Source of the DNA: Amoebophrya sp. A120
Taxonomy: Eukaryota; Protista; Dinoflagellata
Assembly: GCA_905178155.1 (NCBI GenBank)
Contig: CAJINV010000007.1
Span: forward strand, 3,366,265-3,430,264
Length of the DNA stretch: 64,000 bases
Direction of reading: 5' to 3'
This document shows, piece after piece, positions 271-23,700 of this stretch; positions within the stretch are counted from its first letter, which is position 1; the number at the start of each line of letters is the position of its first letter. Under the pieces are notes generated by a model that was given only the letters and a program-made list of their open reading frames with translations, was not told where the DNA came from and did not search any database. The translations under genes and the position numbers were made by a program.

Positions 271-1232
271 TTTACGCCCTGGCCAAAGCTTAACTTGATA
301 AAATCAATTTTTATGCTTGTACTTTTCGATGCGTGCTGACGGGATCTAACCGTAAAGCCGCAACTTAAAGATAAAGCCCAATCCTGTCCATTGAAGTGTT
401 TGGTAAGTCTTACCAAATACCTCGCGCAAAACTCGCTCGAGAAACAACTCCGCCGTGCCACGTCTTGACGTCTATCTATCCATAGCTACTTATTTTGGTA
501 AGAGGCCGCCCCGCTGTAGCCATTGATTTGGCCTCATCAAAAAAGCGGCTCTGCACTTACTGATATAGTTAAAAGGATAGAGCTACAAGGTCAAGTTGAA
601 GTTGTAAAAGTAAAGATAAAAAGTAAAGGAACTCGTTTCGCGAGCGTGCTTGCCAAAGAAGAATACTGACGTCACAGAAATTTGAAAATCGCATGGTCGG
701 GAGAAGCGTGGTTCGCGAATGCTAGTACTTCTTGATCCTACCCTCGAAGTAAAGCGTTCCGACGCTCGCATTGAAACCCCTGGTCAGCGGATCTTGGTGT
801 ATTTTTCAGTAGAGAGCATTGTCTTGCCTGATTTCCTCTGAATAAAAACCCATGATCGACGTTGGCCGCACGGTTTTTTAAATATCATCTCTCCACGACG
901 GCACACCCACACATACTTACTACAAGATCAAGTTTTAGAAGGTCCGTTTTGATAACAACACTTTTCCGGATCTGTTTCCTTCCTCGTTTGGATTTTCACG
1001 TCTTACGCTCGACGCGATCAAGTTTTGTGATCCGAAGTTCTGCGTTTTGTTTTGAATCCGTCTTCATGCAAGCCTGTAAAAGTGCAATTATTCTTTGTTG
1101 GGGTGTGTTTCGTCAATTCAGTATGGTAATGCTTTTCGTATGTTAATTGAAAGGAAAATGAAATGATTCAGGTTGATGAGGTCTCGTCCTTTTGCTTTTA
1201 GTAGAAGGTAACGTAGAGCAAAAGCGGACAGA

Positions 1233-4200
1233 ATGAGGACACCAATGTCGGCTGTTGGGCGAACAGCAAGTTTTTATGGTCTGATGGAGACAGTTCTCTA
1301 TCGATGTTTCCCCGCCTCGCGTGCCCTGCGACACTTGGTGGTGTTGTTCGCTTCGATTGGCTCTTTGGCGGTTGTGGTCATAGGAGCAGGCACGGCACTG
1401 ACCGCGCAACCTGATCATCTTCAGGCGCAGCTTTCTGGAACGTTTTCACAGACTTTAGAGCGGCTGGATGTCTCGCTTTTTTTCAACCCAGGAAGAAGTA
1501 GAACCGGCGGAGCTGCAAAGGGCAAAAACTACGTCAAGAGCAAAGATGAAAGAGGAGTCGCTTCTTCAAGCAACGGCTCAGCAGCTGAAGGTTCGACAGT
1601 AGTCCCCTCATTCTGCGGAAGCAACGAGGTCGCGGGGAAAATAGAAGAGTTCCTAGTGATCAGCTCAGTCGGAATCGGGTTTCCGAGGTGCGGAAAAGTT
1701 TTGGAATTTACAGAGGATGTCGCTTTGCAGGGCTACAGTTACGATGGTGCTGCAACGTTTCTGTACAGAAGCAAGAAGACTGCTGCCACTGCGTCCAAGT
1801 CTCACTCCAACTCCAAGAATGTACCAACGGTAGAACAACTTGCTCCTGAGACAGGCGAACCACCGATAGGCATTCGATTGAAGTTGCAGAAAAGACATCT
1901 TCACTACTGGGCGCAGGTGTTTGAAGGGTTCAAATTGCAGCCGCAGAATACAGAGGATGAAGACGACAAGGTGGAGTTACCCACGGGACGGTTTGTGAAA
2001 AAAGTTCGATTTTTGCAGGCGTCATCAACAGTTCCTTCGCCTTCGGGCGACGGGGGCGGGGGCCCGGCGACAAGGCTGGCGGAACAAGGTAGTTTTTCAT
2101 TGCAGACGAGATTCGACCACTTTCAGTTCCACGAACGGGAGCAAAGCCACGGTACAGCTGCGGTGAAGAAGATCATGGAGGACTTTTTCTACCGAGAACA
2201 AACACAGCAATTCAGTTGCTCTCAATATCTACATCACCACGCAGGATGGCTGAAGGTCGTGAATGGCTCTGAAAAAGATAATTTCTCGGCTATCGTAGTT
2301 GCGCCGAGACATTCTTGGTGCCCAAAGTGCTTACACAAAGACAAAGCATTCCGCAGTGTGGCGAAGCTGTGGAATCAGAAGAAGGAACATCAGCTGCATC
2401 CAGGAATGTTGCTGCGCGGCGAAGAAGCAGCAGCAGGGGTAGGAGTTTCGAGAGTTCATTTCGTGGCACTAGATACGCAGGCGCATAAGCGATTTTTCCG
2501 ACAGTATGATGCAGAACACAGAGGCTTTTCTGGAACAACAGTCCAGAAGAAGAAGGCTTCTACTTCCGATGACGACTGTCCACTCTTCGTTTGTCGTGCG
2601 GACGAGCCGCTCATGTATGAGACCCGGATCCCCCACGCCTACAAAATGTCGGACATGGACCTCATGGCGGGGGCCATGTCGGCAGGAGTGAGTATGAACA
2701 ACCAACTCGCGGACGATAAACTCGAGCCGGATCTGGATCGCTTCCAAGAGGAATTGGGTTCCTTGACAAGTGCCTCTGTGGCGGATGAACTCTTCCAGGT
2801 TGTGTGGAGAGACCAGCAAAAATTTTTTGAAGATGGGAAAGGACTGAGAGCAGCGCTGGCACTGGCTCGGTCCTCCGACAGGGCAAGTCACGACATCCGC
2901 GCGAGCACTCTTGCTCGTGGTGGCGCGCCAGGGCACGTACCAGAGGCCTTTGTGGTTCTGTCGGTTTCCGAAGAGGACTTTAGTTCTATTCACACTGCTG
3001 GTCGTCCGTCTTCCGGCCGCTTATTATCATCTTCATCTTCATCTTCATCTCCAACAGTCGACGACCTCCTGCCTGATCCAAAAACGGCGATCTCCGCTGC
3101 GACTTTGCGCCACGACTTTTTGCAAAGGATCGCGGAAAAAAAGTTGACACAAAACAACGCGGTCGCGGATGCTTTTGTCCACCACGCAAGGTCGTTTCGG
3201 CGAACGGGAAAAGGCTTTGCGAAGTTCGTGGTTTGTGTTGCCTGTGCATTGAACGTCGGCCGTGAGGAGCCACCGTCTCCTGGTCTTGCGCCACCACTGC
3301 TGGTCTGGTATTTGGGTGAAAACCGCACCGATTCCTACTCGTTTTACGACAGAACTGAAAACTCAAGTTCACCTCCTTCATCGCCAGCTGCTTTTTTGCA
3401 AAAAACCACAGCACCCTTGCTCCGGAAGTACTCGTTTGGGATCAAGCGCGAGCTGGAGACGCAGTTTCGTCCACAACCACAACTACTGCAAGAGAAGAAC
3501 ACAACTGCTACAAGAACTACGCAGCAAAATAAATGGTACGCGGTTGTCTACTGGAACACCACGGCACTATTCGCAGCAGACGCGTCTCCGCAAGTAGAAA
3601 GTGTTAGCGTGACTGATGGCGGCGGGTTCTCCACAGCCTCTGCTGATTTCTTGCCTGTTGATACAACAAGGACAAACCACACCCAAACTCAGAACAGATT
3701 TTTCGCGGAAGCCGTGCGTCAGTTTCGCAACAATGTGCTCAATCTCGCAGTAGACCTCCGGCGCAAGGGATTGGCGTCTGAAGAAGCAGAGGAAATCACT
3801 TTCCTCCAATTTGAGCCCACTTGGAGCTACTATTTGAAGGACTTCGGGTTTCACAGAAAGCAGTATCCGCAAATCGCGTTCGGATTGCGGTCGTCACTGG
3901 ATGTTGGGAAGGGGAGGAGCTTCGTCTTTGAAGGATCAAACAGCAAAATAAAGGCCGACAACAGCAATACACGACGAGGCCAAAAGATGAAACAACTACC
4001 TTGCGCAATGAAAACAGCAAAAGCTGCTCTGACAAGTGAGAAAGAGCTTCGTTCGTTCGAAAAGTGCTTTTCGAAGAAGAAGCTGGAAAAATTTGTGACC
4101 CAAGTGTTCTCCGGGAAGGTCAGAGAAGCGCATGCCAGTGGTCCGGAAAAAGAAGATGGGGATCGAGTGTTGGAAGATCACCAGCCTGCAAGCGATGCAG

Positions 4201-6938
4201 CAACAGCATCGAGGAGTCCTCCTGCTGGAGCTGCACCAGAGGGGCAGAAGAAGGAATTAGCGTCACATGTCGCAGAGCAGACGAGCAGCGAAAATAAGCC
4301 ACAGACCACCTCCTCTCCGACAAGCACCACCGTTGGCGACTCCCCCACTGGCGCATTTCCTCGAACCCCTGTGAACGATTTGACCTGGAAATCTCTTTCG
4401 ACCCAACTGTTCAACAGCAAGGAGGCTGATCTGTCAGCGGCAACAGTCATCATCGAGCTCTACCATCGGGATCGGGATAGAAAGTTTGAGAGGGAGGCGA
4501 TTTACCACACGGCCGCGCTGGTCTTCGAGGAGTTGGAGAGGTTGGAGATAGGGAGCAAACCAACCGGGGCGACGTCGCAGATACTTGACGGCAGTGCGGT
4601 CGTACTCGGGAAGAAAAAGTCGAGTCTTCGTTTCTTCCGCTACGACATCAGCGAAAATTACGTCAGTCCGGAGATTTTCGGCGAGAAATACCATAAGCTA
4701 TTCGGGGAAACAAGTATCGGGAGGAAAACGGAAGCGACGGAGCAAGGGGCTGTGTTTTTGTTCCACGGAATTGAAAATACACCTGCAAGAACTGCTGGCG
4801 ATAGAAATACACTGACCACCGCCTCCAAAATAAATTCGCTGGCTTCACTTCGTCGCGGCCCCCCTGCTGTTTTTCCGCTTTCGTTTTCGGGGAAGGAGCC
4901 CAGAGCGCTGTTGGAAGGGTTGGTCAAGTGGATCCACAAGAAAACGACAACGTCCTCGTACCCAGCAACGGCATCAAGGGCTGCTTCAGCGAAAAATCAG
5001 CTTCGAGACGCGTTAGACCTCGTAAAGGATTTCGAACCTGAAATCCTTGCTCGGGCAAAAACGGCGGATGACAACGAAAGACGGCAAAAGAAAGAAAAAC
5101 AAGCGGCGATTGATAAGATGATGAAAACGCTGAAGCAAGAAAAGGGCTTGTACGACATCCGAGACAGTGCCTTCATGTCAGCGGCGAGCGGAAATGCAAA
5201 TGGTGCAGGAAGTGCTACTGGAGGAAGCGGAGGAGAACCAACTGAAACCAAAGCGCCCCCGCTGAAACAGTTCCGCGACCGTGGGGGAGTGAAGGACGAT
5301 AAAAAAGGAAAAAAGATGAAACCGAAAAAAGCGAGGAAACAAGGACCGACAAAACGCTCAAAGGAGCTGAGAGCCCGAGCTGCAGCTGCGGAACGGCGTG
5401 CAGAAGAAGCGATAGAGAAGCAGAAGAAGGGGAGGGAAGAAAAGCTGCAAAGACGCAAGGAGGTTGTAGCTTCGCCTTCGGCGGCTGCTCGTCATACTGT
5501 TCCATCTGCACCGAAGATCATGAAGAAAGATCATGTCGCTCCAGAAGAGATGATCCACACAGTTTCCTGGGGGCAGACGAAAGACACGTTGCACCTCACC
5601 CTGCACTTCTCTTCCAATTTCAAGTCCTGTGTGACAGAGCACCTTCTTAAACAGGGCGAGAAGAATAAGAACACGAACCCGCGCAAGTTTTTCGACGCTG
5701 TCACCGTGAAGATTGCGGAAGAGCAAGATGCTGTTGTAATAGAAGCGGAGTTAGACGACGACGAGGACGAGCAGGCAAGCGCAGCATCAGTTTCATCCCG
5801 GACCACGACTTTGTCTTGCGCTGGCAACAACATGACGCCTGTGGCCTTCCGCACGACGACCCGTCTCAACCTCCGAGAATTTGTCCGGAAAGAGACCCTC
5901 GAGCTTGCGTTTCAGGGCCAACAGACGAGAGACGCAACAGCTTCCACGTCAGTGACTGCACCAACCGCCACCGTCGAAGCGCAAGCGATTCTGACAGTGC
6001 GAAAGAAGATTCCGCACCGGTGGGACCGTTTGTTGGACACTTGCAGTGCGAAAAAGGGCAAGGCGTTTTTCGAAACAGCATGCAAGACTACAAGCTCCTT
6101 CCAGCGCCAGCACTCAGAAAAAAACTATAGGAGCAGTTCAACATCAATGCCTTTCCGGTTGAAAAAGGATTGGGTAAAGGAGGACCCGAATTTGGAGGAG
6201 GAGGAAGATGTGGAGCTCCCCAAATGCAAAGATTTGAAACCAATCACCGGGTCGCAGCTGGAGCTAATTTTCGAAAGAGGAAGCGCTGATCATGTTGCGA
6301 GGTCACAAATTTCAATTGCTGTTGCATGTCTTTTCGTAGGCGCATGGTTCTATGGTGAATGAGACGCTACGCCGCACGTCATCTGGTGCAGCAATTTGTG
6401 ACTGTGACACATTCATATTGCGAAAATTCAATTTGAAATAGAAACTCTTCTACAGGCCCTCAATCGCGTCGACGACAGCATTGCAGCCAAGCTCAAACGA
6501 GACAAGTTCCGAAAAATCCAGCGCCGTCTTCCCCCGCATGCTCGTTCTGTTAGTCCGTCACCCCTGGTGCCGTGCCTGTGAGGAAAAGGACCGGGAAATC
6601 GTGAACTTCGTGAAATGGAAATCCAGCGAACTGCCGGCCAATTTGGTGAAGTTCGCGGTCCTTGACGCCAGGGAGTACAAAAATGTGGCAAGTCGCTTTT
6701 TGCAGGACCATTCTGCTGCGTCCGCGGATGAAAATTTCAGCGGCGGAAATCTTCCCGTTCTTTCTGCCTGCGACGCCACCTGCCCTCTGCACGTCTTCAA
6801 GCGTGAGGAGGGGCTGGATAAGTTTTACGTCCTACCGGCGAAGAAGTGGCACGAGGAGTACTTGCTGGATATGTACCAGTATGCGGTGCCGCTCGTGACT
6901 CTGTTCAACCAGGAACTAAAGCAAGACGCTGAAGAAAA
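1233..6938 (+). CDS. 5' part of a large secretory-pathway thioredoxin/PDI-like protein with a CS(p23)-like domain (exons 1233-6301 and 6456-6938), interrupted by the retroelement
   Basis: 1709-aa ORF with an N-terminal hydrophobic segment and CS-like motifs (SWGQTKDTLHL...KKIPHRWDRL...KDW). Phase-2 GT-AG intron 6302-6455 joins an exon with the thioredoxin motif PWCRAC. The frame continues at 21205 after the element. Confidence 0.75.
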
Positions 6939-7058
6939 TTATGAGATCTAAGGTTTTCGTAAGGAAATAGTTGATCGTCAATTGTGGGAGTTGTCTATAG
7001 TCGGTTTCGTATCCGGGGCTGTGAGCATCCGGTCACCACACTCACACTCTGTTGAAAA
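6939..7058 (+). repeat. Split direct repeat A1 (120 bp)
   Basis: Matches 20751-20870 with 1 mismatch. Confidence 0.95.
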
Positions 7059-7389
7059 GCGACTTTCACGTTCGCCCTTCGGCTTTTGCCTTCGGCATTG
7101 TGGCAGCTCCTTTTCGCGTGTTTGGTCAGCAAACACTGCTCCGACTCGCCTCTCGTCGTCCCGGTTTCTTCACTTGTATGCTTGTTGATTGCGATGTCGT
7201 TGGGCGTTAGCATGTCCGCTGCGCACACACGACAGGGCAGTCGCTGGTGACAGTGCCAGCACCTCTCGCTCAGTTGTTGGACAGAGTACCTCATTGGTGG
7301 TAGCAGCACGTATGCATGTGAAGTCGTGTCCCGAACACACTTGGCGTAAGGCTGCCGCATGTATGTGTTCTATGGCTCTTGGCTAAGAC

Positions 7390-8188
7390 ATGGCATGCTG
7401 CGTGTTGATCTTGTCATCACACATGTTCACAAGGTTAGACATTCGTACTGCTTACCGGGATCATACGATGTCTGTTGCAAGAGCGAAAAAAGATCTTTTA
7501 GAGCTCTTACAGTTTTGCCGTGCGTCAGAGACAACAGTAATACGAGTCTGGTCGTCCAACAAGATGGTCGTCTCTCTGTCCGCAGCGGATCTTCCGCAGT
7601 TGCAACGCATTATGTCTGCTTGCTCTAACGACGTCTCGCTACACACCCCTGTGTGGTGTGCGCTGGTGTACGGCAGCCGCGCCCTGGAGTCGGTGGCCAA
7701 CATTGTGGAATCGCACGCTTTGCGCATGCAAGCAGCAGGTCCGAAGGTGGTCAACGAAGCGAATAATGACCCGATGACCACGGTTGCCGCCGTGGAGGCC
7801 ATGCGCCGCACAATTACTGAGTCTCACGACCTGACGGTGAGCACTTTGATGGTATGTTTTTTTCCTTTTGCGATACGCATGACTGCATGACGCTCGATGA
7901 TGCTGCATGATACAACCCATCAAATTGTCTCAGGAATCGGCGCAGACGGTGCTGCCGGGGACGAAACCCTGCGCCAAATTCAAGCAAATGCTCTGGGAAA
8001 TTCCAGTGGTGATCCCGCCGCAGTTCGCGGCCGCCAAGGCCTGGAGTCCCAAATTCAAGGAATGGGTCCACGGCACAGCCCCGATCCAGCAGACTGGTTT
8101 GGTGCGCCTGTTGATGGACCGCAACGTGGCGAAAATGTTCGAAGACGCGAGTGCTAGTGTTAGCACTACGAGTACTTCCGCAAGCTAA
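7390..8188 (+). CDS. Element accessory gene 1, unknown function (exons 7390-7851 and 7934-8188; ~238 aa; start uncertain)
   Basis: ORFs 7390 and 7907 are joined in phase 0 by GTATGT...CTCAG intron 7852-7933. Confidence 0.6.
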
Positions 8189-8436
8189 ATTTCCCACAGA
8201 TTCGTGTCGTTACAAGACGTATTTGTCTTTATGAATTAGACGAACCAGTCTAACTCTCAGGACAATTCCGAACACGAGTTCAACTATTTTGAAACTCTGA
8301 ACGCGAATTACTGGCACTACCATCTTGACCTTTCAACGTAATGGTGTTCGAGCTTTTCGTTTCTTTTGGTCGTGTTGTAGCTCACGCCGTTTCGCATAGA
8401 TTACTCTTGAGCCGCCGTGCAAGCCACAGCGAAATC

Positions 8437-11121
8437 ATGTCAAGATGCGTAATTTGTTACGACGACAGCGTGGTAGACGCTGGCAGGGAGCTATGGTGCA
8501 CAGAAGTCGCCTGTGCGAACAAGCACTGCATCTGCTCCACCTGCTACTCCAGCAAAGGAGGTGTCATCCTGATCGCCGAATTCGGAGCCTGGGGCCAGTC
8601 CACAAAGTGCGGCAAGTGCAAAGCATGTGACAGATCCAAGACAGTTGCGAACTCAGCAAAGGTAAAAGATAGAATCGACCAGCGAGCAGGAACTGCAGCC
8701 GTTACGGAGCAAGTCATCGCAGCTTTCCCTTGGTGCGCCCAATTCGCCGCTACGTCGGTAGAGAGAAAGGCGAAGTACTACGACATTCTGAAAAGGCCGC
8801 CGATACGCCGCTCCCAAAAGATTGAGAAAGATCAAGGAAAGTACATGATGAAGCTGCTCGGTCAGTGCCTGGCCAACACCAACCAAGCGGCTCAGGTACG
8901 CTTTTTTGCTTTGTAGCGCAACGGACTTTGATTGCCTAGTAAATACAGCATGACAAATTCTTCATTGTTATCACCACAGGACTTCATCGACAGCACAAAC
9001 ATGCAAGAGATTCCGAAGTGTTCGTGGAAGACGATGATTCTCCCGCCGGAGGGATCGCTGTTGGAACTCAAGCAATACTTGCAAACCTTGACTGACTTGT
9101 TTCCGTCCGAGGATTGGATCACTCTGGCCCGATATTTCTTGTGGCCCGTGACCTACTACGAAAAAAAGTCGGCCGCCCTGACCAAAAACTCCGTGGCCAA
9201 GAAGAGTTTGTCTTTGAATTACAATTATCAACTGTGCAGACATTTTCCTTTTCATGTTGCTCTCGTCTTGACACGTGATACGCAAGCAGATATCCATGCA
9301 GATCACCACATAACTCTCATGCGATTGTTTGCTAGGTAATCACAAAAATTACAAAAGCCAGGTATTTTCTCATCAAAGATTTTGCGGCCGCCCTCAAAAA
9401 GAAGTATCAGCCGGCCGATGGCTCGCAAATTTGCCGCCTAAAAGGCTGCCGATTTTTTTCTAATATTGTGGGCCCCACATTGTTCCGGCATGGCGCCCCC
9501 CTTGCTTCTTTTCGTCGTGGCCCCGCGAGTCTGGGGCCCCGAGGGTTCTGGAGGTAGTCCGGGCACGGGTTTTGTCGTCGGTAGTTTTTGCAGGTTTTGG
9601 AAGCTGGGGCGCTGGGGATTTGCGTTTTTAGCATTGTTTGGCGAAGATTGCCCGCCCCGGGGTCTCCAGGGCCCGGGGCGCATCCGGCCCGGGGTTGCCA
9701 AGGTTTGCGCCCCTGCGATGTTTGCGCCCCAGAAGGAAGGCAGCGCGATTGTTTTCCATTTGTCTCGGGCCGCACATCAATGGCCCCGGCCCGCCCGGCC
9801 GGGGTTCACGAGGGGCGCAGAAGTGGGGCGGGGGGGGGTCTAATTTGGGCTCTAATTTCGCGTCTAATTTGTTTCTAATTCCAGCATAGGGAATGTGGGG
9901 GGATTTGCAATGAAAAAAATTAGCCGTGATTTAGCCAGGAAATTAGGCGCGAAGTTAGTCGCTTGCCTTAGCATCGATTTAGGCAAGGAATTAGCCGGAG
10001 GCAAGAGGCGCCCCGCCCGGCCTGTTTCCGGCTAGGCGGTTGGTGTTGATCATTTTGCCGGGCGGCTTCCCGGCTTTTTGTGTGGGCGAATTGCCGCCAC
10101 CCCTAATCTTGCATCTCGCGCCTGACCCCCCCTCGGGGCCGCCTCCCTTCTGGGCCATTTTCTCTCTGGATGGGAAGAGCCCAGCGGCGTTCGGTATTTG
10201 GCCGCGAAGTTCTTGGCCCCGTTCGTTTTTGTTGTCCCGCCCAACGTGATTTCTGCCCGGTGGCCTTCGGGCTGGGTGTTGTCTTTGGCGGCATTGCCGC
10301 CACTTTCTTTTTTTTGTTTTCCTTCGTAACATTAGAAAAAAGATAGCAAGTTTTAAGCCTTGGAGAATGCCCGGGGTCGGCTGCCTGACAAGTACGTCGC
10401 GTCCGCGGTCGACGAGGCATTTTACAACCTCGAGTACGCCTGTGCAATGACGCAGGCGGCTTGCGATAATTTGTGCAAGCCCAGTATTATGCAGCGCATG
10501 ACGCAGATAGGCGGAAGCTTCATGTCGATGATCGCGGGAGGCGGCGGCAGGAACGCCTTCCCTGAGCTGGGACAGAACCCCACAGACAGCAACGCGATCC
10601 AGCAAAAGAGTCAGCAGCTGTACAACGAGATCAGCCGCATCATGACCGAGGCACCGCGCACCACCGCAGGAGCATACGCTGCGATGGAAACGGCGAAAGC
10701 CAAGAGCGACGCGATTCTGTCGCAGTGGATGCAGAAGACCCAGAGCTGTGTCAACTGCCTCATGGGCGGCAAGGGTCCAGGAAGCCACCATGTGGGAAAA
10801 AAGATGGGTTTGAAGGCCTGCTCAGACTCGAACAACACGCGCTACATCAAGTGCCCACGCCCGCAGTGCAACGGAGAAGCCCACTGGAACAAGAGCTGCC
10901 CGGTCGTCCTTGCAGGAAAGAACGGGGGTGGCAGCCAGCAGTTCGGTGGGAGCCAGCAGTTTGGTGGTAACCAAAATTTTCAAAAAGGTCTTGGTAGTAA
11001 TTTGCTCCGTCCGTTCAATGGAAATGGAGGTCAACCGTTTGCGAAAAGAACCAAAAACAACAATGGTGGAAAAGGGCGCAACATTTCTAACGTCACTACT
11101 TATGCCAACCCCTTCAACTGA
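8437..11121 (+). CDS. Gag-like protein with N-terminal C3HC4 RING finger and C-terminal Zn knuckle (exons 8437-8895, 8980-9205, 10358-11121; ~482 aa)
   Basis: CVIC-x18-C-x3-H-x2-CSTC-x21-CGKC RING pattern; CPRPQCNGEAHWNKSC knuckle followed by a Gly/Asn/Gln tail; GT-AG introns 8896-8979 (phase 0) and 9206-10357 (phase 1) keep the frame. Confidence 0.7.
9336..10357. other. GC-run-rich non-coding insert within the gag intron, with a central divergent CTAATT/AATTAG array; probable degenerate nested element
   Basis: Abrupt compositional shift to G/C and A/T homopolymer runs. CTA at 9840, 9852, 9864 and 9875, then TAG at 9921-9992 every 11-13 bp. Same design as 18260-19486, but no clear TIR/TSD. 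Confidence 0.5.
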
Positions 11122-11386
11122 CGAAGTAACCTGTTTCAATTTCTTTATCGATAAAAGAATACATGAGTCAAGGCAGATACAAGCGCCCCCTTTTCCATGG
11201 CGTCAATGTAGCTCGACGCCGACGGTGGCATGTTCTTTGAAGTTGTGTCACGCAGGAGAGATCATGGCAAGAGATTAGTGAGTCCTCACCTTTTCTTTTA
11301 TTTTCTTTCTTTCGTCTGTTGCCCGGTTCTTCCTGTTGTTGCGTCCGGAGTGCATTTTGGCACACACAGATCTTCCAGCAACCTCT

Positions 11387-13680
11387 ATGACAGCCTTAGT
11401 AGGTAGTCACTTCACGATGAGCAAATTAATTGCAAGTGATGCGATAAAAGACGCTCTTGGCCAAGAGGTCAGGCAGCGCGAGTTACACAAAATTGCTGAG
11501 CAAGCGGCGGTAGCAGCATCGCTGAAAGAATTAGCGAACGCTGAAAGGAAATCAAGCAAAAAGCCGATCGTCGCGCCACCACAAGCCGCACCTATCGCCC
11601 CCGCATCATCGAAGCGGAAAGCACCTGAGTACTACAGCGCTCTGATGGACGCGGTGGAGACAGAGTTAGTGTGTGTGGAGGACTGGCACGAGGAGGCTCT
11701 AGAGGATTTCAGCGCAATCGTGCCGTCGTCGGGATTCGTGACTGCCGCCTCCTCACCAGCGGCGGAGCATAAATTCGCGACAACGCTATTCGGAGTTACG
11801 GGAATACGCGAGCACATGGAATTACGGAAAGAGGCGCTGAAGAAACCGCTGGGCACACTAATGTGCATGAACGCCTGGGCAGATGTATCGCAGTGTAACT
11901 CCAGCGCATGCAATTCGTCGCAAGGAGCAGCAGCTGGCTCTGTGACGTCGTCGAGTTCAACTTCATCGAGTGCAACGTCGTCAAGCGACGCCACGTCCGA
12001 CTCCATCGCAATCATATCGAAACCGGGAAACATAGTGCTCACGACTCCCACGCCGTCGATAGCGAGTGTTTTACATTTTTACCAGCAAGCAAAAGGAAAA
12101 GCCGCAAAGAATTACACGCCAGTTTCGGAAGAAGGTCTCAAGATCGATTTTACAATAAAGGCCGCAAGCAGCGAGATGTTCGGTGCCTTCCCGCTTTCGG
12201 ACCAAGCAGCCCAGTTATTAGAATCGGCGACCGCGGACCACGCCAACTCCTCGATAACAGAGGGTACGTCGAGAAGCTACACATCGATCTTGTCGAAGGT
12301 GATCCCAGCCGTCGCGCGGGAATTAGGTTTCATTCTGTGGCCGATAACCACGGATGCCGAGGCAGCGCTGCTGTTCGTGACGTTCGCACATGTTCACTCG
12401 GTCCACAGCGCCTACAAGAATGAAGATTCGAATCGAATACGGTGGGGCGCTTTTTTACAATTGAGCGCGGCGATAAACGCCTTCAATTCCTCGAGAATCG
12501 AGTTAAGCGGCTACACCACGAAGAACAGAGGAGCTTTCTTCCAGAAGCTATGGAAAGGGTGCGTTTTATTTGTTTCTTGTCGCCAAAAGTTTGATGATGG
12601 TTTCTCTGAGCACAAATTGTTGGAACTTCGTCACGAGTCATCACATATTTCCACAACACAGGTTCAAAAAAGAAGCACACCACGGAGCCCCACTGGATGC
12701 GAAGTGGTGTCCGACGTCCACCGAGATGCTCGACGCCTACACGACCGAATGGGAGCATTGGCAGCGACACCACAAGCACATGGTAGACAGCGAAGGAGAT
12801 TTCCAGAAGAAAGTCTTGAGAAACATGTCGCGCAACGATATAGATCTAGTTTTACGACTTCAAAAATTAGCGATAGTTGTCGTAGCTTTCTTCTGTGTTA
12901 GACGGAGCGACGAGGTCAGACTGCTGCGGTTGCGTGATGTAACAATCACCGCGTCACCAGGGTCGGGGCCGCAGTGCGCAGTTTTCGTTTCTCAAGCAAA
13001 GAGCGACCAGCTCTCATTCGGCTCCCTCAGAAGCCTGGGTGCCAACGCATTTCACAAGAATGATAGCTGATTACCAGCGATTTGCCCGCGCCTTCTTTGA
13101 CATAGTACTAGGACGAAAAATGGCCCCCGCCGACGCCTTTTTCTTCGTCATAGGGAATGCGAACATTAAAACCAGGGGTGCGTTCAAATCTAGCAAAGAT
13201 GGTATTAGGAAAGACATCAAAGCCTTTTTCAGCTACGCCTTGCCAGGCACGGTCCCTGAAAAACCAATCTCGCTGCGCAAAGGGGGAGCAAAGCATTATA
13301 TCGAGCACGATGTCTCGCGACGTTTCGCTTATTATCAAGGCGGATGGAGGAACAGCTACTGTCTTGATGTGCACTACGCACCTATCTCGAGTATGGAACT
13401 AAGACAGATGGCAAACAGACACTCGTCCAAAAGCTTAGAAACCTATGCGAATATCGCAAGCCTGCGGGCACTTGACCGCGCCCACGCGATATATCTACAC
13501 GATGATGACGCGATCAAATTTTCGCGCGAGGTCGAGAAGGTGGCATGGGACAGAACCTCTTTAGAATCCTTCCAGGAGGAATGCCCCAGGCTTTTCTCTC
13601 ACGCCGCGTGCAGCTCTTGCGATGCGGCAGTGTACGGAAAAATTTTAGATTTTTTATCAAAATGCGACGAAGATTCATAA
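11387..13680 (+). CDS. Tyrosine recombinase of the retroelement (intron 12559-12661; frameshift near 13036-13039)
   Basis: Box I AFFCVRRSDEV, catalytic K in QAKSDQ, ISLRKGGA (HxxR box with H replaced), GGW and DVHYA nucleophile. The phase-2 GT-AG intron joins LWKG|FKKEAH. Confidence 0.85.
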
Positions 13681-13914
13681 GCGAAAATCTCACACCAAAC
13701 ATGTAAATCTCAGCCACGCAGGCTTCTCGCACTACGTGATATGTTGTCCTTGTTTGCAGCTACTGGCACAGAGCGTCAGCAGATCTGAGCGCAGGCGCGA
13801 CGTAGAGAGAAACGCAAGTGGTAGCACACGGTGCAAACCAGATCCAAAAACTCACTACCGCAAGCAAGCATTAGCCTAGCGTTAGCAGCTCAGCCTTAGT
13901 TTACAGTAGAAATA

Positions 13915-15030
13915 ATGGAACGACCGCTAGGGCATTTGTCAGGATGGCGCTTCTGGTTCTTTGTGACCAAGGTGACCATGCAGAAATGCTGGTTGCTCTT
14001 ACAGCGTCTCAGCACCATACCGCAGTTAATGGCACGCGCAGTCTACGATGACGATAGAATGCTCGTGGACCATTTCTTCCGCAATTTCCGGTCCGCACAG
14101 CACTGGACTTTCCTGGCCAAGTTCTATACGGCAACCATACTGCGCGTGATGGTATTTCTAGTTCGATTACATAATTTACATGCATCTTTGGGCGCAGCGA
14201 AAGCCTTTTCATTAACAAATTCTCATGATCAAAATTAACAAGGTTCCGTATATTCTGATCGAAATCGGCATCATCGACGGGCAATCGCTGATGTGCGCAT
14301 GCATTTCTTATGCAGTAGTCCAGCGGGCGGAATCTTGTCGGTATTTGTTGTTATTACCAAACTTCAGGGACAATTAATAGCAATCCACATATCCTTCTAG
14401 TACCGAGCGCAAAAAATGGACCTAGGAAATCTCGACTATTGCGAAAAACTGCCGTTGCTTCGGCAGGCAAAGTCGATGCGATCCATGATCGATGATTTGA
14501 GTACGAAGGAGCAGAACAATTCCACCTTTTCGCAAGTTGTCGCTTCTTATCGCTGGTGCATGCGCAAAACCCTCCCCAAAAATTGTGACGCCAATGAGTT
14601 ACGCAACACCTGCGCCGTGCTGTTGGACACGCTGGAGGCAATTTGTGCCAAACAGAAGTGTCAAGCGAAATTAGCGGAGGGGATGGCGTCTGCGATTGAT
14701 TCGCTGTACAGCCACCTGTCGGAGATCTGGAATTATCCGGCCCAGGACGAGGCGATGATGGGCCGCAAATGGGCGTCTGTGCTCCTCGCGCGCCAGTTCG
14801 CCCACACCGCAGTGCAGATCTATCGCACCTACCACAAGCAGTCCTCCGCCGACATCGCGAACTTCTACAACCACGAGAAAAAGAAGTACAAAGAAGCCCG
14901 CTTGAAGCAGTTCAACTTGCGAAAGGAAGGAAAGGCTCTGCATGATGAGAAGAAGGAGGAATCCAAGAAAGAAGACTTGCAGAAGCCGTCTGAGGATGAT
15001 AGCTCATACCCGTCTTCGGATTCTGACTAA
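13915..15030 (+). CDS. Element accessory gene 2, unknown helical protein (exons 13915-14151 and 14401-15030; ~288 aa)
   Basis: ORFs 13915 and 14416 are joined in phase 0 by GTATTT...TTCTAG intron 14152-14400; charged C-terminus. Confidence 0.6.
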
Positions 15031-15057
15031 ACAATTTTAAAAAATTTCTTCTTCAGT

Positions 15058-15432
15058 TGTCTCGGACGGATTGTCGGGTCGCAGATCGCAGTGCGCAACT
15101 TCGTTCAGACCAGCGGGCGACTAATCGCACGCGCCTTGGCTCGATGCCTGGAACTGCACCCGGAGCCGTATAGTTTTACCTTTCTTTCCCTTTCGCGCAA
15201 TGGCGCATGTTTTTTGTTTGCATCATGATGATATTGGCATGACGAAAATACTTTATACCACTTAGAACCAAATCACAATCACTCGATCAGGTTAGATGAC
15301 GACCTGCCACCGAGCAGACACACATCCTCATCGGAAGACGAGCGAGTGGATTCGTCATCGGGTGATGATTCTGATGCGGAGGTCGTGAACCCGCAAGAAG
15401 CCATTGATGCAGTCCACCAGCACCAAGACTGA
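15058..15432 (+). CDS. Possible further element exons (15058-15167 and 15291-15432), acidic peptide, no own ATG
   Basis: Open frame joined by phase-2 GT-AG intron 15168-15290; in the same frame as accessory gene 2 just past its TAA. Confidence 0.3.
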
Positions 15433-16001
15433 TGTGTGTCAGTCTCATCGTGGATTTCAAAAAAATTTGTTCATCTTGTAGAAACATTTGACTCAACAAG
15501 AACGGAAAATAGATAGACAAAAACACAGACGACAGAGGACCACGGCAGCAGGATTGTTCTTCTTTCGTTTTGATCACAATCTGTGCAAGAGCATCGGTTT
15601 TCAGTACTTTGCTGCGTCCTTTCCAATCGTCAGTGTCATTTTGATTGTCGTCGTCCGATCCCGCTACCGTCTATTCCAATAAGCTTCCCGCACAGTTTCA
15701 CAGATGTCATATACACATGTTTGGTTTGTAAGTGGGCGCAGGTGGCCTCACGAGCGAATATGTTACTTTCAGAAACTAGAGAGAATCGAGCGCAACTTCA
15801 TGTGCAACCTGAGGGGTTGCTCAGACGAGATTTTATGTGAAATACAATCAAACTGGCTACAAAAAAATGCGCACCTCCTCTCCACGTCCTCCGCGGACGC
15901 ACATGAAGGCCTAGCGGCAGCATGCGCAGACGCGAAATGTCATTTATCTAGGTTTCGGATTTTTGATCTGATTGAAAATGAGCGAAAAATGAGATAAAGA
16001 A

Positions 16002-19000
16002 ATGCGCTCGTCACCTCTCGTTATGTTTTGCGGGGTGCAAATAGGCCGCTCAGCAGCATTGCTGCGCGCACAAGATGCGCAGGACAAGAGAGCAACAAAA
16101 AGACACAAGACGCAGCACGCCTCCTTCTGCGGAGCCCAAATAGGAAAGCCACCAAAAGTAGCGGAGCCGGCACAAGAAATTCATCACTGGATAGCGCAAG
16201 AAAATGCGGCATCAATCATGAAAGATAAGCCGAGGCCATGCAAGAAGGATTCGCAGAAAGAATGCGACGCGTGCTGGGACGACCCCTCGCTGATCTTTCC
16301 GCAGGAAACAGTGGTGACATGGGGCAGCCACTTACCGCAGCCGGGAAAAGCGCCACGAAGCCATCAGTGCGACATCGACACCGTAGACCTGTCACGTCTG
16401 TTTACATGCGGGAATGAGTTCGGTGACCCTTTCAATTTCGCGCCGTGCTCCCCCTTCAAAAAAGAAGACTACGAGAAGGCGGGCGCACCTCTGACACGAG
16501 CAGCAGGCAGGAAACTGCTGCAAGACCAAGAGGGCCCGAGCGACAGGTGGCGCAAGGCCGAGGATGGCCAGGCGTTCGCGGGTCTAACGATAAACCCAGA
16601 AGAATGTGTACGGTTTGGACTACAGCCAGAAGTTTTGCTGAAAGCCTGCACGGGGATAAAGTTCCAACAAATCGCAGAGCACCTAGACCCGGTAGTATGC
16701 GAGAACTACCCGGCGGCCAAGCAGAGCCCGGAGGTCTACAGTAACGAGCTCAAGCGCTTCTTCGAGTGCAAAAAGATCATCCTGTACGATGTGAAATCAG
16801 AAAAGAACGACAAAGGCGAAAGTGTGGAAGTGTGCGACTACCCCAGCGACTTGACGCGCGTGCCAGGAAATCTGCTGTTCCAACGCGACGACAAGATCAG
16901 GGTAGTCAGCGACTACAGCAGCGAGTGGGCCCTGATAAGCCAGTCCATTTTTTCCACCGAAGTAAACTACAAGACCTACTGGGATATGTTTCTGCTGCTG
17001 AAGCCGAACTCCGTCGGGAGTGGTATCGACTTCATGGACTCCTTCGGCCACTGGTTGGCGCACGCACGTTTTCGCCGCATGCTTGGAATAAGTCTCGAAG
17101 GGACAGTACAAAAAGGAGGACATTTGTGCTGTCCTTTTGGCATCGGACCAGCACCGGGCGAAAGCGATTTCTTCGTGAAAGCATTTCTTGCTGCAGTGAA
17201 GAGAAACGGAGTATCGTCGCCAGCACTCGACTACGTAGACGACGTGAGATTTATAACCAGCCCGGTTGACGGCAAACCACACTTCGATAAAGCCAAGCTC
17301 GACCTCGGCCGAGCAGTGTACATACTTACCCGCATGGGCATCAAGATTCACCACAAGGAGTCGAAGCTAATACAGCCGTCGACAATTTTCCCCTGGCTGG
17401 GAAACGTTTTCAACACAGACCCGAGGTCGTGCAACATCATGCTCGAGCCCAAAAGGCGCAAGGAATACCTGCAAGCAGTGCGAGACTTCAAGCAGGCAGG
17501 CAGTAACAAAGAAGCGAAAGCCAGAGACGTAGCCAGCATCAAAGGAAAATTAGGTTCCTGCGCGCTCATCCACCCACGCGGGCCACTGGACGAGCTGAGC
17601 AAGTTGCTGGTAGCTTCAACAGCACCGAAGCAGTGGGCGAAGCTGAGCAGGCAGCTCAATCCGCCAGTTGAAATCTCGGACGCCGCTTTCGAAGACTTGG
17701 ATTTGTGGGAAGACCTGCTGTCGACCGACCACACAAGACAAATGCTCTTCAACGGCGAGCAGACCTTTATTTGGTCTCGTGAAGTCTTGGCCTTCGGAAA
17801 AGCCTTTTTCGCGTCGTTGGGGCCAGAGCTGTTTATCGGTGTTTACATGGACGCAGCAAAAGGCGACATCGAAAACTGCGAAGACCGAAGAAACAGAGGC
17901 TGGGGCGGCACCGTAGCGGACCACTATTTTCGCGGACTCTTCGATCGACGAAAAAGTGCCAGATACCGCCAGCATCAACGAGCTAGAGGCCTTGACAGTT
18001 CAGCACGTGCTAGACGCGGCCAGAGAGAAGTTAGGAGACGCATATTTTCACCAGAAAATAATCCTGATCAAAACCGACAATCCAACGGCAAAAAGAACCA
18101 CGAACAAGGGCTCCGCGGCAACACCGATTCTCAAGAACGTGACGAAAAGCTTGACATCCTTCGCTTCCAGCACAGGCACAGAAATAGTCGCAGCCAAGAT
18201 CGCGGGCGAAGTGAACATCATCGCCGACGCCCTGTCACGCCACGAAGAGCATTTATTTGTCAGTCAGAGAGCCCCCGGGCCGCGGGAGGCACTAAATCCC
18301 AGCTAATTTTTGCGGGATTTCCCCGAAGCCCATAGGTTGGGCGGTGGTTTTCTTCCCCGGGCGTTGAAGGCCCCCGGGCCCGCTGGGTTCCTCCCTTTTC
18401 CGCAGCTCCCGGGGACCCGGGTTTTTCGCAAAGCCCCCGCTGACCCGGCGTGCTTTTTTCAATGAAAAGGCATGGCGGGAATTAAAATTTAAAAATTCGG
18501 GCCGTTTGCAGGGGATTCGGAATTTCGAACGCCGCGGGGGCTTCTTTGGTATTTTCGTCCCCGGGTGGCCCCGAAGGTGGTGGGTAGCGCTCGCGGTCTG
18601 GCTTTCCTGGGGGCCCTCGGGCTTTCGGATTGGGCTGTGAAGACCCCAGCCGTGTGGCCAATGTTGAAATCCCTCCGCCCTATCATTGCTTCACTTTTTC
18701 GCAAAGCCATTGTCGTTTGGCTTTTCGAAAGCACCGCCAGGGTTCCCAGTTTTCTCGTGTTCTATTTTGGACTTCTAAATGTGCTCGCTGTTTTGTTTTC
18801 TATTTTTCTGCGGGATTCGCGTGTTCGGCAGCTGTCTTTTCATCTTCTATTTTTCGCGACACTGGAGATTTCCAAAGGAAATCCTCCAAAGCGCGAATTT
18901 AGAAGTTGAAAAACAGCCGCTCGAGCATGCGAATCCCGCAAAAAATAGAAAGCAAAATAGAAGCACGATTTAGAAACCAAAATAGAATACGATTTAGAGC

Positions 19001-20529
19001 CCCGATTTAGAACATGGAAATAGAATACGATTTAGAGCACGAAAATAGAATACGACTTAGAAGCAAAAATAGAACCCAAAAATAGAAACAAAAATAGAAC
19101 CAAAATTAGCCGGGGAATTAGCAGCGAAAATAGCCGCCCGCGGGGGCTGTTTCGTGTGGGTGTAACTGGGTGGGGTTTCCGATGGTTGATGTTGTTTTTC
19201 GGGCGGCTTTGGGATTTGGGATTTTGGCTTGTGGGAATTCGTCCTGTGTGAGATTGCCGCCCCTGCCATACTCCATGTGCAGAAGGTGGCCTGCTTCCCA
19301 TTGGGTGCTTTTTGTTTTCCTGAAGTTCCTTGCCTGATTGCTTTGGGATCTTATGTGGCGCAACTTGGGCGCTCGGTTTTCCGGGTTTGGGTCTTCACCC
19401 ATTGTCCCGGGTCTCGGGGTTTGAAAAAATCCCGCAGAAATTAGCTGGAAATTAGCGGCCGCCACCGCCCCGGGGTTTCTGGCTGATATTTGCGTTTAAA
19501 GATCCTTTTCCGGATAAAACTTTGCGCAAGCGCTCGTGGAGCATTGTGATGCGCGAGATACCGGGTTTGAATGTCGACTGTTTTGCAGATCACCACAACT
19601 GGCGTTTCCCGGAATACTACACTGCGCACAATCATCCGCTCGATAGCTTCGACGTGTTTTATAACAAACGTTCGTGGTGGTTCCCACCAATACGCCTTGC
19701 AATAGTAGCAGCGCGCTTCCTCGCCAACTTCCAAAAGATTCCAGTAGCTCAAAGACCACGCTTTGCGCTGATGCTGCCGATGATCAGCCCCATGTTCTAC
19801 GACCTAGCGTCCAACTTCGTGCAGTTCTGCACGTACAAAAAGGGTTCCAAGGTGTTTTGCGCAGCGCAGTGCCCACTCGTGTACGGAGCACACGAAGACT
19901 GGATGTTGTTGTTGTCTGTGCATCTACACGACTGGGGAAGAGACAGAGAAAAGACAGAAATAGGCGCGCAAGTTACAAAAATTTTACGCAGGCCTTACTT
20001 TCGTCAATTTCCCGAGCTCGCTAGGAGCAAGTTAAGAATTATGGATATTTGCTATGCGCGCGAGCGGTTTATAGTCCACAACACATGCTGCGTCCCGTGC
20101 AAGCCCAGCGGTTTGGCGGCACAGCTGTTTGCAAAATATCCGAAGGCAAACCGCTACGGGGAGCCGTTTTCTGCGAAACCACTAGGAGGATATGAAGTGA
20201 TAGGAAAAATTGTCAATATTTACGCTATGGTCTGGCCAGGAAAACCCGTCCTCAACAGAGTCCCACGACCATCAGACGTAGTACCGGTAGAAGCATTTAC
20301 AGCAGACGACTCAGCAGAAGCTCGTCTTTTTCGTTTCAAAAACGCGTTGCGCGACTTTATTTTGTCAATCATAGACGAGACAGAATCAGTAGCAATCCCG
20401 CTCAGAATTGGACAAGGCTCATGCGCAGGAGGACAAAAAGAATACTGCGCAGTGATCGCCAAAGCCATCGACGTCGCATTTCGAAACAATGTAGACGCCA
20501 GCATTTATGAGAAGCCGCGCGCTCTATAA
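16002..20529 (+). pseudogene. pol: reverse transcriptase - RNase H - DNA N6-adenine methyltransferase-like - macrodomain; disrupted by a 4-bp duplication (17941-17948) and a nested insertion (18260-19486)
   Basis: RT motifs GIDFMDSF, CPFG, YVDD, WLG. RNase H motifs YMDAA, INELEAL, KTDN, NIIADALSR. MT motifs VDCFAD...WFPP...LMLP. Macro motifs IVHNTCC...GLAAQLFAKYP...VAIPLRIGQGSCAGG. Confidence 0.85.
18260..19486. mobile_element. Nested non-autonomous TIR element (1,227 bp) with 6-bp TSD TATTTG
   Basis: Imperfect ~60-bp TIRs (TCAGTCAGA...CTAAATCCCAGCTAATTTTTGCGGGATTT vs AAATCCCGCAGAAATTAGCTGGAAATTAG...TCTGGCTGA). TATTTG at 18254-18259 and 19487-19492. Removal restores HLFAFKDPFPDKTLRKRSW in frame. 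Confidence 0.85.
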
Positions 20530-20570
20530 TTTCAAATCCACACACCTTGCCCTGGGATACTCTGGAATTA

Positions 20571-20750
20571 GCGCCCAAACTACACGTTTGTAGCATGTGC
20601 TCTGTTCTAGTCCTAGCTGGAAAACGCAGATCACTTCAAGATCAAGACCTCGTGGGTCATTCGGTCTAGATCGCGTGTGTGTGTGTCGGGTACTGAGCTT
20701 GTGCGGTCGCTCAGCAAAATAATTACGAAACCTTTGCTCTACGACAACAA
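20571..20750 (+). repeat. Split direct repeat B1 (180 bp)
   Basis: Matches 21025-21204 with 3 mismatches; directly abuts A2. Confidence 0.95.
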
Positions 20751-20870
20751 TTATGAGATCTAAGGTTTTCGTAAGGAAATAGTTGATCGTCAATTGTGGG
20801 AGTTGTCTATAGTCGGTTTCGTATCCGGGGCTGTGAGCATCCGGTCACCACACTCACATTCTGTTGAAAA
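20751..20870 (+). repeat. Split direct repeat A2 (120 bp)
   Basis: Copy of 6939-7058; B1|A2 reproduces the end-to-start (circle) junction. Confidence 0.95.
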
Positions 20871-21024
20871 CCCACCCACCCGCACCAAACTGTGTCGGCT
20901 CTGGGCAGTGTTCTATGAAACAATTCGGTCGTTTCGTTCATCACGAAAAGACTATAGATAGCTCCCACGATTTTTGTATAAATCGTTCAAGCCACTACCC
21001 GTTCACACCAGAGCATATCCATGC

Positions 21025-21204
21025 GCGCCCAAACTACACGTTTGTAGCATGTGCTCTGTTCTAGTCCTATCTGGAAAACACAGATCACTTCAAGATCAAG
21101 ACCTCGTGGGTCACTCGGTCTAGATCGCGTGTGTGTGTGTCGGGTACTGAGCTTGTGCGGTCGCTCAGCAAAATAATTACGAAACCTTTGCTCTACGACA
21201 ACAA
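21025..21204 (+). repeat. Split direct repeat B2 (180 bp), right end of the element
   Basis: Copy of 20571-20750, followed immediately by host coding sequence. Confidence 0.95.
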
Positions 21205-23700
21205 CTTTAATCGGGAAAAGGCGTTCCACCAGTGGCGAACCGCTTTTCACACTGGCATTGTGGCGTACTTCCCGCCCGGGGTGGTGGATCTGGATGAGAA
21301 GGATATCCAAGCAAATACAACCGACGTGAAAGCTCATGATATTGCAGCGCAGAATGGCACGGTGATTGAAGGGGGAAAGAACACCATCAATACAACAAGC
21401 AGCGCAACAAGAACGTCACCGCTGTGGGAGAAAAGCGCCAACACGATTTGGTTAGATTTCCTAACTACCGCTCGCGCGCTCCGCGGAAAAGCACTGTTCA
21501 GTGCGACGAACGACTTGCGGATGGTGCACAATGCCGCTGAAGGCAATGAAATGAATGCTGTTGCTGACGGAACGGCAACGGCATCAAGTCCTCGTGATTC
21601 AGTTTCATCATCGCACGATGAAACAAGTCGCCAAGTCCAAATCTACGTTTTCAAGTCGGCCGAGAACCGTGCGGTAAAGTACCCGACTCCGGAACAACTA
21701 ACCGCAGAGAAGCTGACCGAGTTCAGCAAAAGACTCGCAGTTCCGCTCGTCTCCAACTTTGATTTTCACTCCAGGCAACAGTTAGCAGAGTTGAAAATGC
21801 CCATTGGGCTCCTCTGGGTGCAGAATCAGGACGAAAACATTGATACAGCTCTTGCCAAACAGGAACTGGAGCGGAAAGGAGGGTCAGCAAAGAAAGTCAA
21901 TGACAACTACACCGGAGCTGCATCGTCCGGCAGCGTTTCGGAAGATGACAGTGGCGAAGAGATGAACTACCGCAGCGAGGAAGAGGATGTAGATGAAACT
22001 ACCACCGCCGTTGAGATCGTCGAGAAACTGGCGCGGAAATTCGAGGGCAAGATGGCATTCGCGAAGTTAAATGTGACGACCGAGGGCATTTACATGCGGG
22101 AATTCGGGTTTCACCCGGCGAGATCCCTTCCAGCGTTCGGAATTGTCAACACCGTCGACGCGCTGACAGGCGGTGCTCCAGGAGGAATGCAAGGAATGCC
22201 GGGGTTGGAAGGTACAGCCTGATTGCTCGTGTAGTGGTCCGGCGGTTGTACTTACCTCCGCTTTTCCTTTTTTCGTCTCTTTGACAGCTTGCACTACAAA
22301 ACTTAATTTTTTGTCTAAGAAGCAAGCTTGCACTACACTGTCTCTTTGACAGTGAGATCAAGATGTTTTACTATTCATAAGGAGGGAACGAAGGGGACCT
22401 ACAGGCACGAATCTTGTTCGAAATCTACATCTCACAAGGCACGAAGTCCTCGCTCGCTTTGGACGGCGGAGCCCGCTACGCGTTTGCAGAACGGGTGACA
22501 CAGGGTTCGGAACAGAAGTTGGCCCAGTTCGTCGACACCTACTTGCACGACCAGCAGAAGCTCTCAAAGGCTTTTCGCACGAACGAGCTGTCGGCGAAGT
22601 ACGAATGGCTGGCGAATCGGGGACAGGTCCAGGAAACGGTGTGGAGCCGACTGTGGGAAGATTTGGGATGGTGGAGCGAAACCAAAAAAGACTCTCATGT
22701 CCTCTTCGAGCTCTACGCGCCGAACCGTCCGCAACACTCTACCCACATGCTGCTGGTGAATTTGCTTGCTGTCGCGCTGAAGAAGGTGCAAGGGTTCAAA
22801 ATTGTGCGAATGGACACGGAAAACAATCACGTGCCAGAGGAATTCAAGAAGCCTTCTTTCGCATCAAGTTCATCTAGCAAGAATAAGCATCTGAGGTCTG
22901 AGAAACAGCACAACTCAGCGCCCGGAGCAAACATTTTCGACACCGCGAGCGGACAGGCTCCTGCAGCAACGGAATACTTCTTCCTCGATACGAAGGCAAG
23001 GAAGGTTACACGCTTCAAGAGTTTCCAAAGCGCGAAATTGCTCGATTTGCCGGTGAAGTTATTGCAGTTCGTGAAAACGCAGCTGGAGAAGGGAGTAGAA
23101 GGCTTGGAAAGAACTGCACATGTGCAACAGGATGAAACTGCAGAGACGGAAGATGAAAAAGAGACGAGCAAGATCGCTGAAATAAACGAAGAACCGTCAA
23201 AATTTGCGAGTGGAAATGCTGCTCATGTTGCTCGTGCGCAAGTAGAGGAACTTTCCACCGCAGATTACGAGGAACGTGAGGAGGCGGACGAGCACCGCGA
23301 GGTGGACGAGCCACGGTTACTGACATCAAACCCCATGATGATCGGGTCTACTTCAGGGGCTGTAGCTATGCTATCTCCTTCCTCTCTTTTTTCTGAACAC
23401 GGCCACTTCAAACCCGAGCCCCTCCCGGTCGTCTTCAGTGCCGCAAAAGAGTTTGTGAAACGGGAAGTCCGCGAGAAGGTGCGGAAAATGAAGCGGATCG
23501 AGCGGGAGCGAGAGAAGAAACACCACGAAGCCTGGGCGCAGTACGAAATCGAGGAGTTTTTACGGTACGAGAGGAAAGGATACGACTTACACGGAGCCGC
23601 TGGGATGGCCGGGTCGTTGGGGAATCTAGCTGCAGGAATGGGTGGGGGGAAAAATGGAGGTGGTGGTGGCGGGGGCGGCGGGAGAAAATCTAAAGATTGA
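21205..23700 (+). CDS. 3' part of the thioredoxin/PDI-like host gene (exons 21205-22211 and 22382-23700)
   Basis: PDI b'-like segments (EKLARKFEGKMAFAKLN...REFG...LPAFGI; LFELYAP...IVRMDTENNHVP) resemble repeats in the 5' part. Phase-1 GT-AG intron 22212-22381. Confidence 0.75.

Follow-up and report, generated by a model that had tools for sequence, protein, structure and literature searches.

A coding exon of a thioredoxin-like host gene, within the 64,000-nt window of Amoebophrya sp. A120 DNA analyzed here, is interrupted by a full-length, decayed tyrosine-recombinase (YR) retrotransposon (positions 6937–21204, forward strand), of which 14,266 nt are absent, to the base, from the spliced host mRNA. 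This absence is a real feature, observed with one RNA sample and one informative DNA run: the filled site was seen in the DNA run, and the exact empty junction in contigs derived from cDNA. The 14.3-kb element likely behaves (probability roughly 0.6) as a single giant non-canonical intron that is cut out of the pre-mRNA. The first-pass annotation of the sequence had offered splicing or DNA excision of the element; RNA removal now leads, although a difference between the samples at the DNA level could give the same picture, and carriage of the insert by the mRNA-making cells is presumed.

Absence of the element from spliced host mRNA

Eight of the 11 listed sequence runs were placed on the window (X2, X8, and X11 were left out), and the RNA evidence consists of assembled contigs, not raw reads: the raw RNA runs X9 and X10 contributed 0 reads, which speaks neither for nor against removal. 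No run is on record as RNA. X3, X4, X5, and X6, which share sample label S2, were taken as RNA by guess, and their contigs are counted as cDNA derived from spliced RNA because they lack GT-AG introns. X1 is a DNA-like run with a different sample label (S1). X7 is a noisy run with many small gaps, classed as DNA-like as the intron from 26043 on is read through.

All four RNA-like runs holding the gene (X3–X6) contain one contig each in which position 6936 is joined to 21203, as had been predicted for transcripts from the sequence. These contigs also skip the GT-AG introns in their range, and show no other differences from the window over 3,883, 4,411, ~2,500, and ~2,500 nt. In all four runs the bin depths are fully accounted for without a contig spanning the filled left junction, and in X4 and X6 the same holds for the right one; at the right junction 0.3 depth units are unexplained in X5. 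One RNA-run piece lies inside the element and has 0 differences in 171 nt (a weak match, P up to 0.21). The inverted-repeat (IR) introner at 26304–26516, used as a control, is likewise skipped in RNA, and has GA..TA ends and a 6-nt direct repeat. Being absent from spliced transcripts and having ends other than GT-AG, the retrotransposon shares these two properties with the non-canonical introns of Amoebophrya.

The host gene lies on the forward strand. Its first exon (1233–6301) occupies an open frame at 1212–6362 with the first ATG at 1233, while the public protein starts at 3987; RNA contigs cover the gene from 4100 onward, the stretch upstream of 4100 being outside this coverage. A canonical GT-AG intron of 154 nt follows (6302–6455; joint 6299 to 6454 in X3 and X4). 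The interrupted exon consists of an upstream part with a thioredoxin-like CxxC region (6456–6938; RNA contigs and comparison with Amoebophrya A25) and a downstream part with a Thioredoxin_6 domain (21205–22211; Pfam and RNA contigs). A second canonical GT-AG intron, of 227 nt (22212–22438; joint 22208 to 22436 in X3–X6), precedes the last exon, which runs to the stop (22439–23700; RNA contigs). With introns removed as in the RNA contigs, the joined frame has a single final stop, as envisaged in the first-pass annotation, but counts 2,606 codons from ATG 1233 and not ~2,625.

The exon part downstream of the element is 100% identical to Amoebophrya sp. A120 protein P0001 (CAD7956151.1). P0001 is continuous across the insertion site, so that in the public, transcript-guided annotation the insert already counts as an intron. 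The A25 orthologue (35–37% identical; 37% for the exon part after the element) is also continuous across the site, and both proteins contain Thioredoxin_6. At exactly the insertion point (window 6900–6938), the A120 protein has 13 residues more than that of A25. As query in a metagenome scan the host exon gave no match, and the host gene identifier was not found in the introner-study supplements (PMC12130899).

No frameshift was seen in the host frame, against 2.7 expected at the frameshift rate of the element (P = 0.064). The intact frame had been put forward as a sign of splicing, and this argument was rejected: an insertion by core recombination duplicates nothing beyond the short core (PMC7192593), so an intact frame is expected of any tyrosine-recombinase insertion and says nothing on splicing.

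Anatomy, decay, and coding content of the element

The junctions lie at 6937–6938 and 21203–21204, and AA are the sole letters they share, as the first-pass annotation had it. The element displays the A1-B1-A2-B2 layout of a split-direct-repeat YR retrotransposon. All four repeats are on the forward strand: A1 (6937–7058, including an IR arm at 6950–6962 and, as first noted from the sequence, an in-frame TAA at 6949–6951), B1 (20571–20750, from the repeat comparison), A2 (20749–20870), and B2 (21025–21204, including the second IR arm at 21177–21188). The B1|A2 boundary is an internal copy of the circle junction; as query in a metagenome scan it gave no match. There is no target duplication, only the short AA core at both ends, the empty site being that of the RNA contigs. 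Elements of this type are believed to insert through recombination at a short core, which then stands on both sides with nothing else duplicated (PMC7192593).

The two repeat pairs differ at four places (A, 1/122; B, 3/180), in agreement with the original count, which had been taken as a sign of age. However, at each of these places a solo sister copy agrees with A2/B2 (chance 1 in 16 if the mismatches arose in place), so the mismatches can be inherited, and dating the insertion by them was rejected. The solo A2-spacer-B2 unit, of ~455 bp (as window 20750–21204), lies at another locus (X5 record 2; also X3 and X4). Its right flank starts TTTAGATCG, near the CTTTAATCG of the insertion site and the A start TTATGAGATC, a likeness that hints at a target preference. 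In a diverged subfamily present among the RNA contigs, the motifs of the B end are conserved, as is the B|A junction (window 20668–20722 and 20973–21003).

The element carries two nested insertions, where one had been described, both multi-copy miniature inverted-repeat transposable elements (MITEs) with no strand assigned. Insertion 1 (9400–10387, 988 bp) has depth 226–370 in X1, and a sister copy joins 9399 to 10388. Insertion 2 (18254–19486, 1,233 bp) has strong terminal inverted repeats (TIRs) and a 6-nt direct repeat, and is absent from the sister copy; in size and TIR length it resembles A120 introner family fam103 (1,143–1,191 bp, TIR 16). Both frameshifts previously noticed, at ~13022 and ~17941, correspond to 4 bp absent from the sister copy, and these stretches explain why the recombinase and pol regions change frame. 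Neither the nested inserts nor the 4-bp stretches are present in sister copies, which differ from this copy by 0.9–6% in the listed pieces.

In X1, flank contigs of 5,951 and 5,161 nt (depth 43–44) enter A1 (to 6962) and leave B2 (from 21175), reaching 24–30 nt into the element; both filled junctions are thus seen, and no empty joint is listed at this depth. Depth inside the element is mostly 76–153, about three copies. The variant specific to this copy has depth 40.8, as for a single copy (one record, 11047–11466), and so no identical parent copy is visible.

All reading frames of the element are on the forward strand. The 5′ frames (7387–11121) are gag-like by position, with Cys-rich and CCHC-like motifs, and have no Pfam match above cut-off. 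GT-AG introns are apparent by eye in the element frames (7853–7934, 8897–8980, ~12561–12660, and 14153–14244); one RNA-run piece of a sister copy is unspliced past 7853. The putative tyrosine recombinase region (11282–13680, frameshift near 13022) has catalytic-type motifs (R..SLRKGG..GGW..Y) in order at 12900–13370. Its look-alikes in the Atlas include NDC10_II and Phage_integrase at 0.96, which is a lead; it has no Pfam match and no homologue in a word-index search, and its single-sequence fold has a predicted local distance difference test (pLDDT) score of 37. Further reading frames of unassigned kind follow at 13900–15030 (open reading frame (ORF) list and Pfam).

The pol region (15993–20529) comprises a reverse transcriptase (RT; YVDD at 17232), RNase H, and a Dam-like methyltransferase; a frameshift near 17941 and nested insertion 2 interrupt it. 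A search with its frame at 15993 gave 115 relatives at E ≤ 0.001, which extend into the RNase H piece (17917–18253) and the methyltransferase piece (19487 on). Among the 27 relatives scanned, RVT_1 was found in 13 at E ≤ 0.01 (8 above cut-off) and Dam in 3 at E ≤ 0.01; RT and RNase H are thus identified through relatives, the window protein itself having no direct Pfam match, and the RT had no match in the word-index search. RT identity to long relatives is at most 35%. The methyltransferase follows RNase H, the window frame matching the C-terminal part of 15 of 121 compared proteins, including the Dam stretch of P0008. A tail at 20000–20529 is possibly macro-like, a label we take from its motifs and which Pfam, the PDB, and folding left unconfirmed. 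A PDB search with the methyltransferase/macro frame gave no meaningful match, and the single-sequence fold of the macro-like piece has a pLDDT of 34. In the AT5 relative P0011, a JmjC/cupin domain occupies the position of this tail.

The recombinase of PAT elements sits downstream of RT and RNase H, whereas here the recombinase motifs come before the RT, which starts at 15993. Ngaro and VIPER elements are defined by the absence of a methyltransferase (PMC4157794), which is present here. Because of these two differences the element fits neither group; as judged from its sequence features, it is a degenerate split-repeat YR retrotransposon.

Probable RNA removal and its alternatives

Removal from RNA is the leading reading because it joins a host frame free of frameshifts, because RNA and DNA alleles are identical over 4.4 kb, and because removal of introns without GT-AG is known in A120. 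The element would have integrated by recombination at the AA core without duplication, and would then have decayed in place, acquiring two MITEs and two 4-bp insertions, with the gene itself remaining undamaged. The permissive intron removal of A120, which deals with tens of thousands of introns without GT-AG, would cut at the element borders and leave one AA. Recognition of these borders would not depend on a terminal introner-type hairpin.

Several observations weigh against this reading. None of the three possible cut registers (AA..AC, AT..CA, and TT..AA) is GT-AG, GC-AG, or AT-AC, and the element ends (70 nt each) pair at −8.6 kcal/mol, a value reached by 173 of 595 random pairs. Among the RNA contigs there is no unspliced precursor across either junction, the element interior is not joined to the flanks by any contig, and the right-junction bin of X3, which is full of repeat pieces, is explained for 10 of 18 units, with ~8 units left. 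The solo A2-B2 copy, whose ends are the same, remains in an RNA contig of depth 12.4 together with its flanks on both sides (X5 record 2; orientation undefined). In X7, 8 of 9 flank bins are covered but none of the 21 element bins (P = 1.5e-6; hole at 7267–21273), and neither a filled nor an empty junction is seen. Finally, DNA and RNA are from different samples and the four RNA-like runs represent one sample, so that n = 1 on each side, with contigs only; the filled site seen in X1 belongs to the sample other than that of the transcript-making cells.

The imperfect end IR reported in the first-pass annotation does exist, and the strongest local complementarity between the outermost 60 nt of the two ends modestly exceeds chance (67/5000 shuffles; 41/5000 random window pairs). 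Its likeness to the IR-bounded introns of this genome did not stand. For four small IR elements of the window, only 0–4 of 595 random pairs reach their end pairing, against 173 for the retrotransposon. The IR arms lie 13 and 16 nt inside the borders, in place of the 8–20-nt terminal IR starting with TAT of Amoebophrya introners, and the direct repeat at the borders is 2 nt long, as compared with 6 nt in the control introner and 3–5 nt as the usual range. The IR (6950–6962/21177–21188) also flanks the internal B1|A2 junction (20723–20734), and is therefore a feature of the element's own recombination junction or cycle. With pairing at background level, an introner-type terminal hairpin was rejected as the removal signal. 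AT-AC splicing was rejected as it would leave one extra A, and none is seen. In folds, the B end pairs in a splint-like manner with A nucleotides 45–75, but this pairing is not significant (13/200 shuffles).

A TAT start and ATA end occur in six of seven small IR elements, with boundaries picked by eye, and the retrotransposon lacks them. Small TAT..ATA IR introners lie at 26304–26516, 39082–39646 (two in tandem at 39 kb), 44594–44899, 48428–48848, 52503–52656, and 60297–60534, of which the first alone was checked in RNA.

It is conceivable, if doubtful, that A120 finds the borders of the insert without splice signals, target duplication, or hairpin, by a cue that does not lie in the end sequence. 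Transposon DNA might, for example, be chemically marked, and such a mark would at the same time account for the hole in X7. A coverage hole in a run is no proof of absence, and this one may reflect either base modification of transposon DNA, which would account for it, or loss of the element family. In core dinoflagellates, transposons, including Ngaro, are marked by the modified base 5-hydroxymethyluracil (5hmU) (PMC11572971, PMC11071213); the literature searched yielded no link between 5hmU and Amoebophrya. CpG depletion was sought as a sign of methylation and none was found (observed/expected 1.05–1.18). Among 33 transitions between this copy and its sister (7248–9303), 15 are at C followed by T and 4 at C followed by A (background 23% and 31%).

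The alternative that best survives, although we regard it as unlikely, is that the cultures differ: the RNA cells would lack the insertion, through recent entry in the DNA lineage or precise loss in the RNA lineage, the "intron" would have arisen in annotation because samples were mixed, and the gene would be knocked out in the filled allele. The different sample labels, the missing precursor contig, the want of both splice signal and end hairpin, the solo copy retained in RNA, the uncovered element in X7, and repeat mismatches that can be inherited are all in its favor. On the other hand, the flanking exons are identical between RNA and window (0 differences in 4,411 nt, upper bound ~0.07%), so any split must be very recent. 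A fresh insertion is made less likely by the four private lesions of this copy, its nested MITEs and frameshifts being absent in sisters and its variant appearing single-copy, with no identical parent at extra depth (one record). Furthermore, a nested hairpin MITE of a kind that this genome splices would probably have been lost from a copy made through RNA. The evidence on the missing parent and on the MITE is thin. Nor is X7 simply a culture with the empty allele, because the sister copies and the multi-copy MITEs, which are partly present in the RNA sample, are missing from it as well. Were the site only to differ between cultures, some giant "introns" in this annotation would be insertion polymorphisms.

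Regular, precise excision from DNA is far less probable. In this scheme the recombinase of a sister copy would act at the AA core, and expressing nuclei would carry the empty site; developmentally excised elements occur in bacteria and offer an analogue. The mRNA junction is indeed what reversed integration would produce, the sister copies have no frameshift in the recombinase frame, and the X7 hole spans the whole family. However, no empty joint is present in X1 at depth 43 (contigs drop rare forms) or in X7, a parasite with a single nucleus and no separate germ line would be expected to inherit the empty site and lose the filled one, and a literature search found no report of precise excision of such elements. 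About as improbable, finally, is that the halves are trans-joined from separate transcripts, or that the true insert is shorter (for instance a solo A-B unit of ~455 bp) with an interior from another locus: no contig bridges interior and flank and solo A-B units exist, but the window is without any N, the A1 letter at 7047 differs from those of the solo copy and A2, the exons are joined in genomic order, and A120 scaffolds were checked against long reads (PMC7789003).

Relation to known elements and introns

The A1-[ORFs]-B1-A2-B2 arrangement is that of PAT, Ngaro, and VIPER retrotransposons, and the element shares these repeats, RT, RNase H, a short core, and the lack of target duplication with PAT-like DIRS, Ngaro, VIPER, and TATE elements (PMC4157794, PMC6681497, PMC8547959). 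Solo A-B units are found here as in the SIRE of VIPER and in Cafeteria Ngaros. With PAT it has the Dam-like methyltransferase in common, while its recombinase lies upstream of the RT in the same direction, as in VIPER and TATE, for which the order is listed as Gag, YR, RT/RH (RH, RNase H; PMC6681497). It differs from its split-repeat relatives in length (12 kb without the nested inserts), in its extra frames, and in an RT no more than 35% identical to those of long relatives.

As an exon insert derived from a transposon, absent from mRNA and without GT-AG ends, the element resembles the non-canonical introns and introners of Amoebophrya A25 and A120 (PMC7789003). Non-canonical ends are reported there for 66.6% of A120 introns, the longest annotated intron is 35 kb, and U1 was not found; introns of 40–1000 bp only were analyzed. 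In contrast to those introns, the insert is ~60 times the mean length (240 nt), has AA only and not a 3–5-nt repeat, lacks the TAT..ATA hairpin, and encodes retroelement proteins. Transposon-derived introns, including families derived from retrotransposons, are known in A120, and according to supplement 8 none of the 58 A120 introner families was finally classed as DIRS (PMC12130899). Family fam135 of that study has four members, all with non-canonical ends, an alignment of ~18.8 kb, and a classification as unknown non-long-terminal-repeat element; it might be the family of the element described here.

A further precedent is provided by the VIPER/Ngaro-like introners fam3 and fam5 of Polarella glacialis, in which an element of the DIRS order likewise forms introns in a dinoflagellate, one of 13.4 kb being noted (PMC12130899). 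However, more than 99% of the fam3 and fam5 copies have GT/GC/GA-AG ends and most are short solo repeats, whereas the insert here is a full-length copy without splice signals. No report of a spliced or precisely excised DIRS/Ngaro element was found in titles and abstract openings; bioRxiv supplements and introner sequence files, which were beyond reach, may bear on novelty. As far as the literature was searched, either RNA removal or DNA excision would be new for a full-length element of the DIRS order.

How introns without signals are removed without U1 in A120 and A25 is described as an open question, and the model offered rests on terminal hairpins and short direct repeats (PMC7789003). The insert provides a sharp test case, having neither hairpin nor direct repeat, ~60 times the mean length, and a border known to the base from the internal junction. 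Elsewhere in the window, a tandem array of 7-bp units (periods 14, 21, 35, and 91) occupies positions 1–307, and a gene for an SNF2-family helicase lies at 51042–52508.

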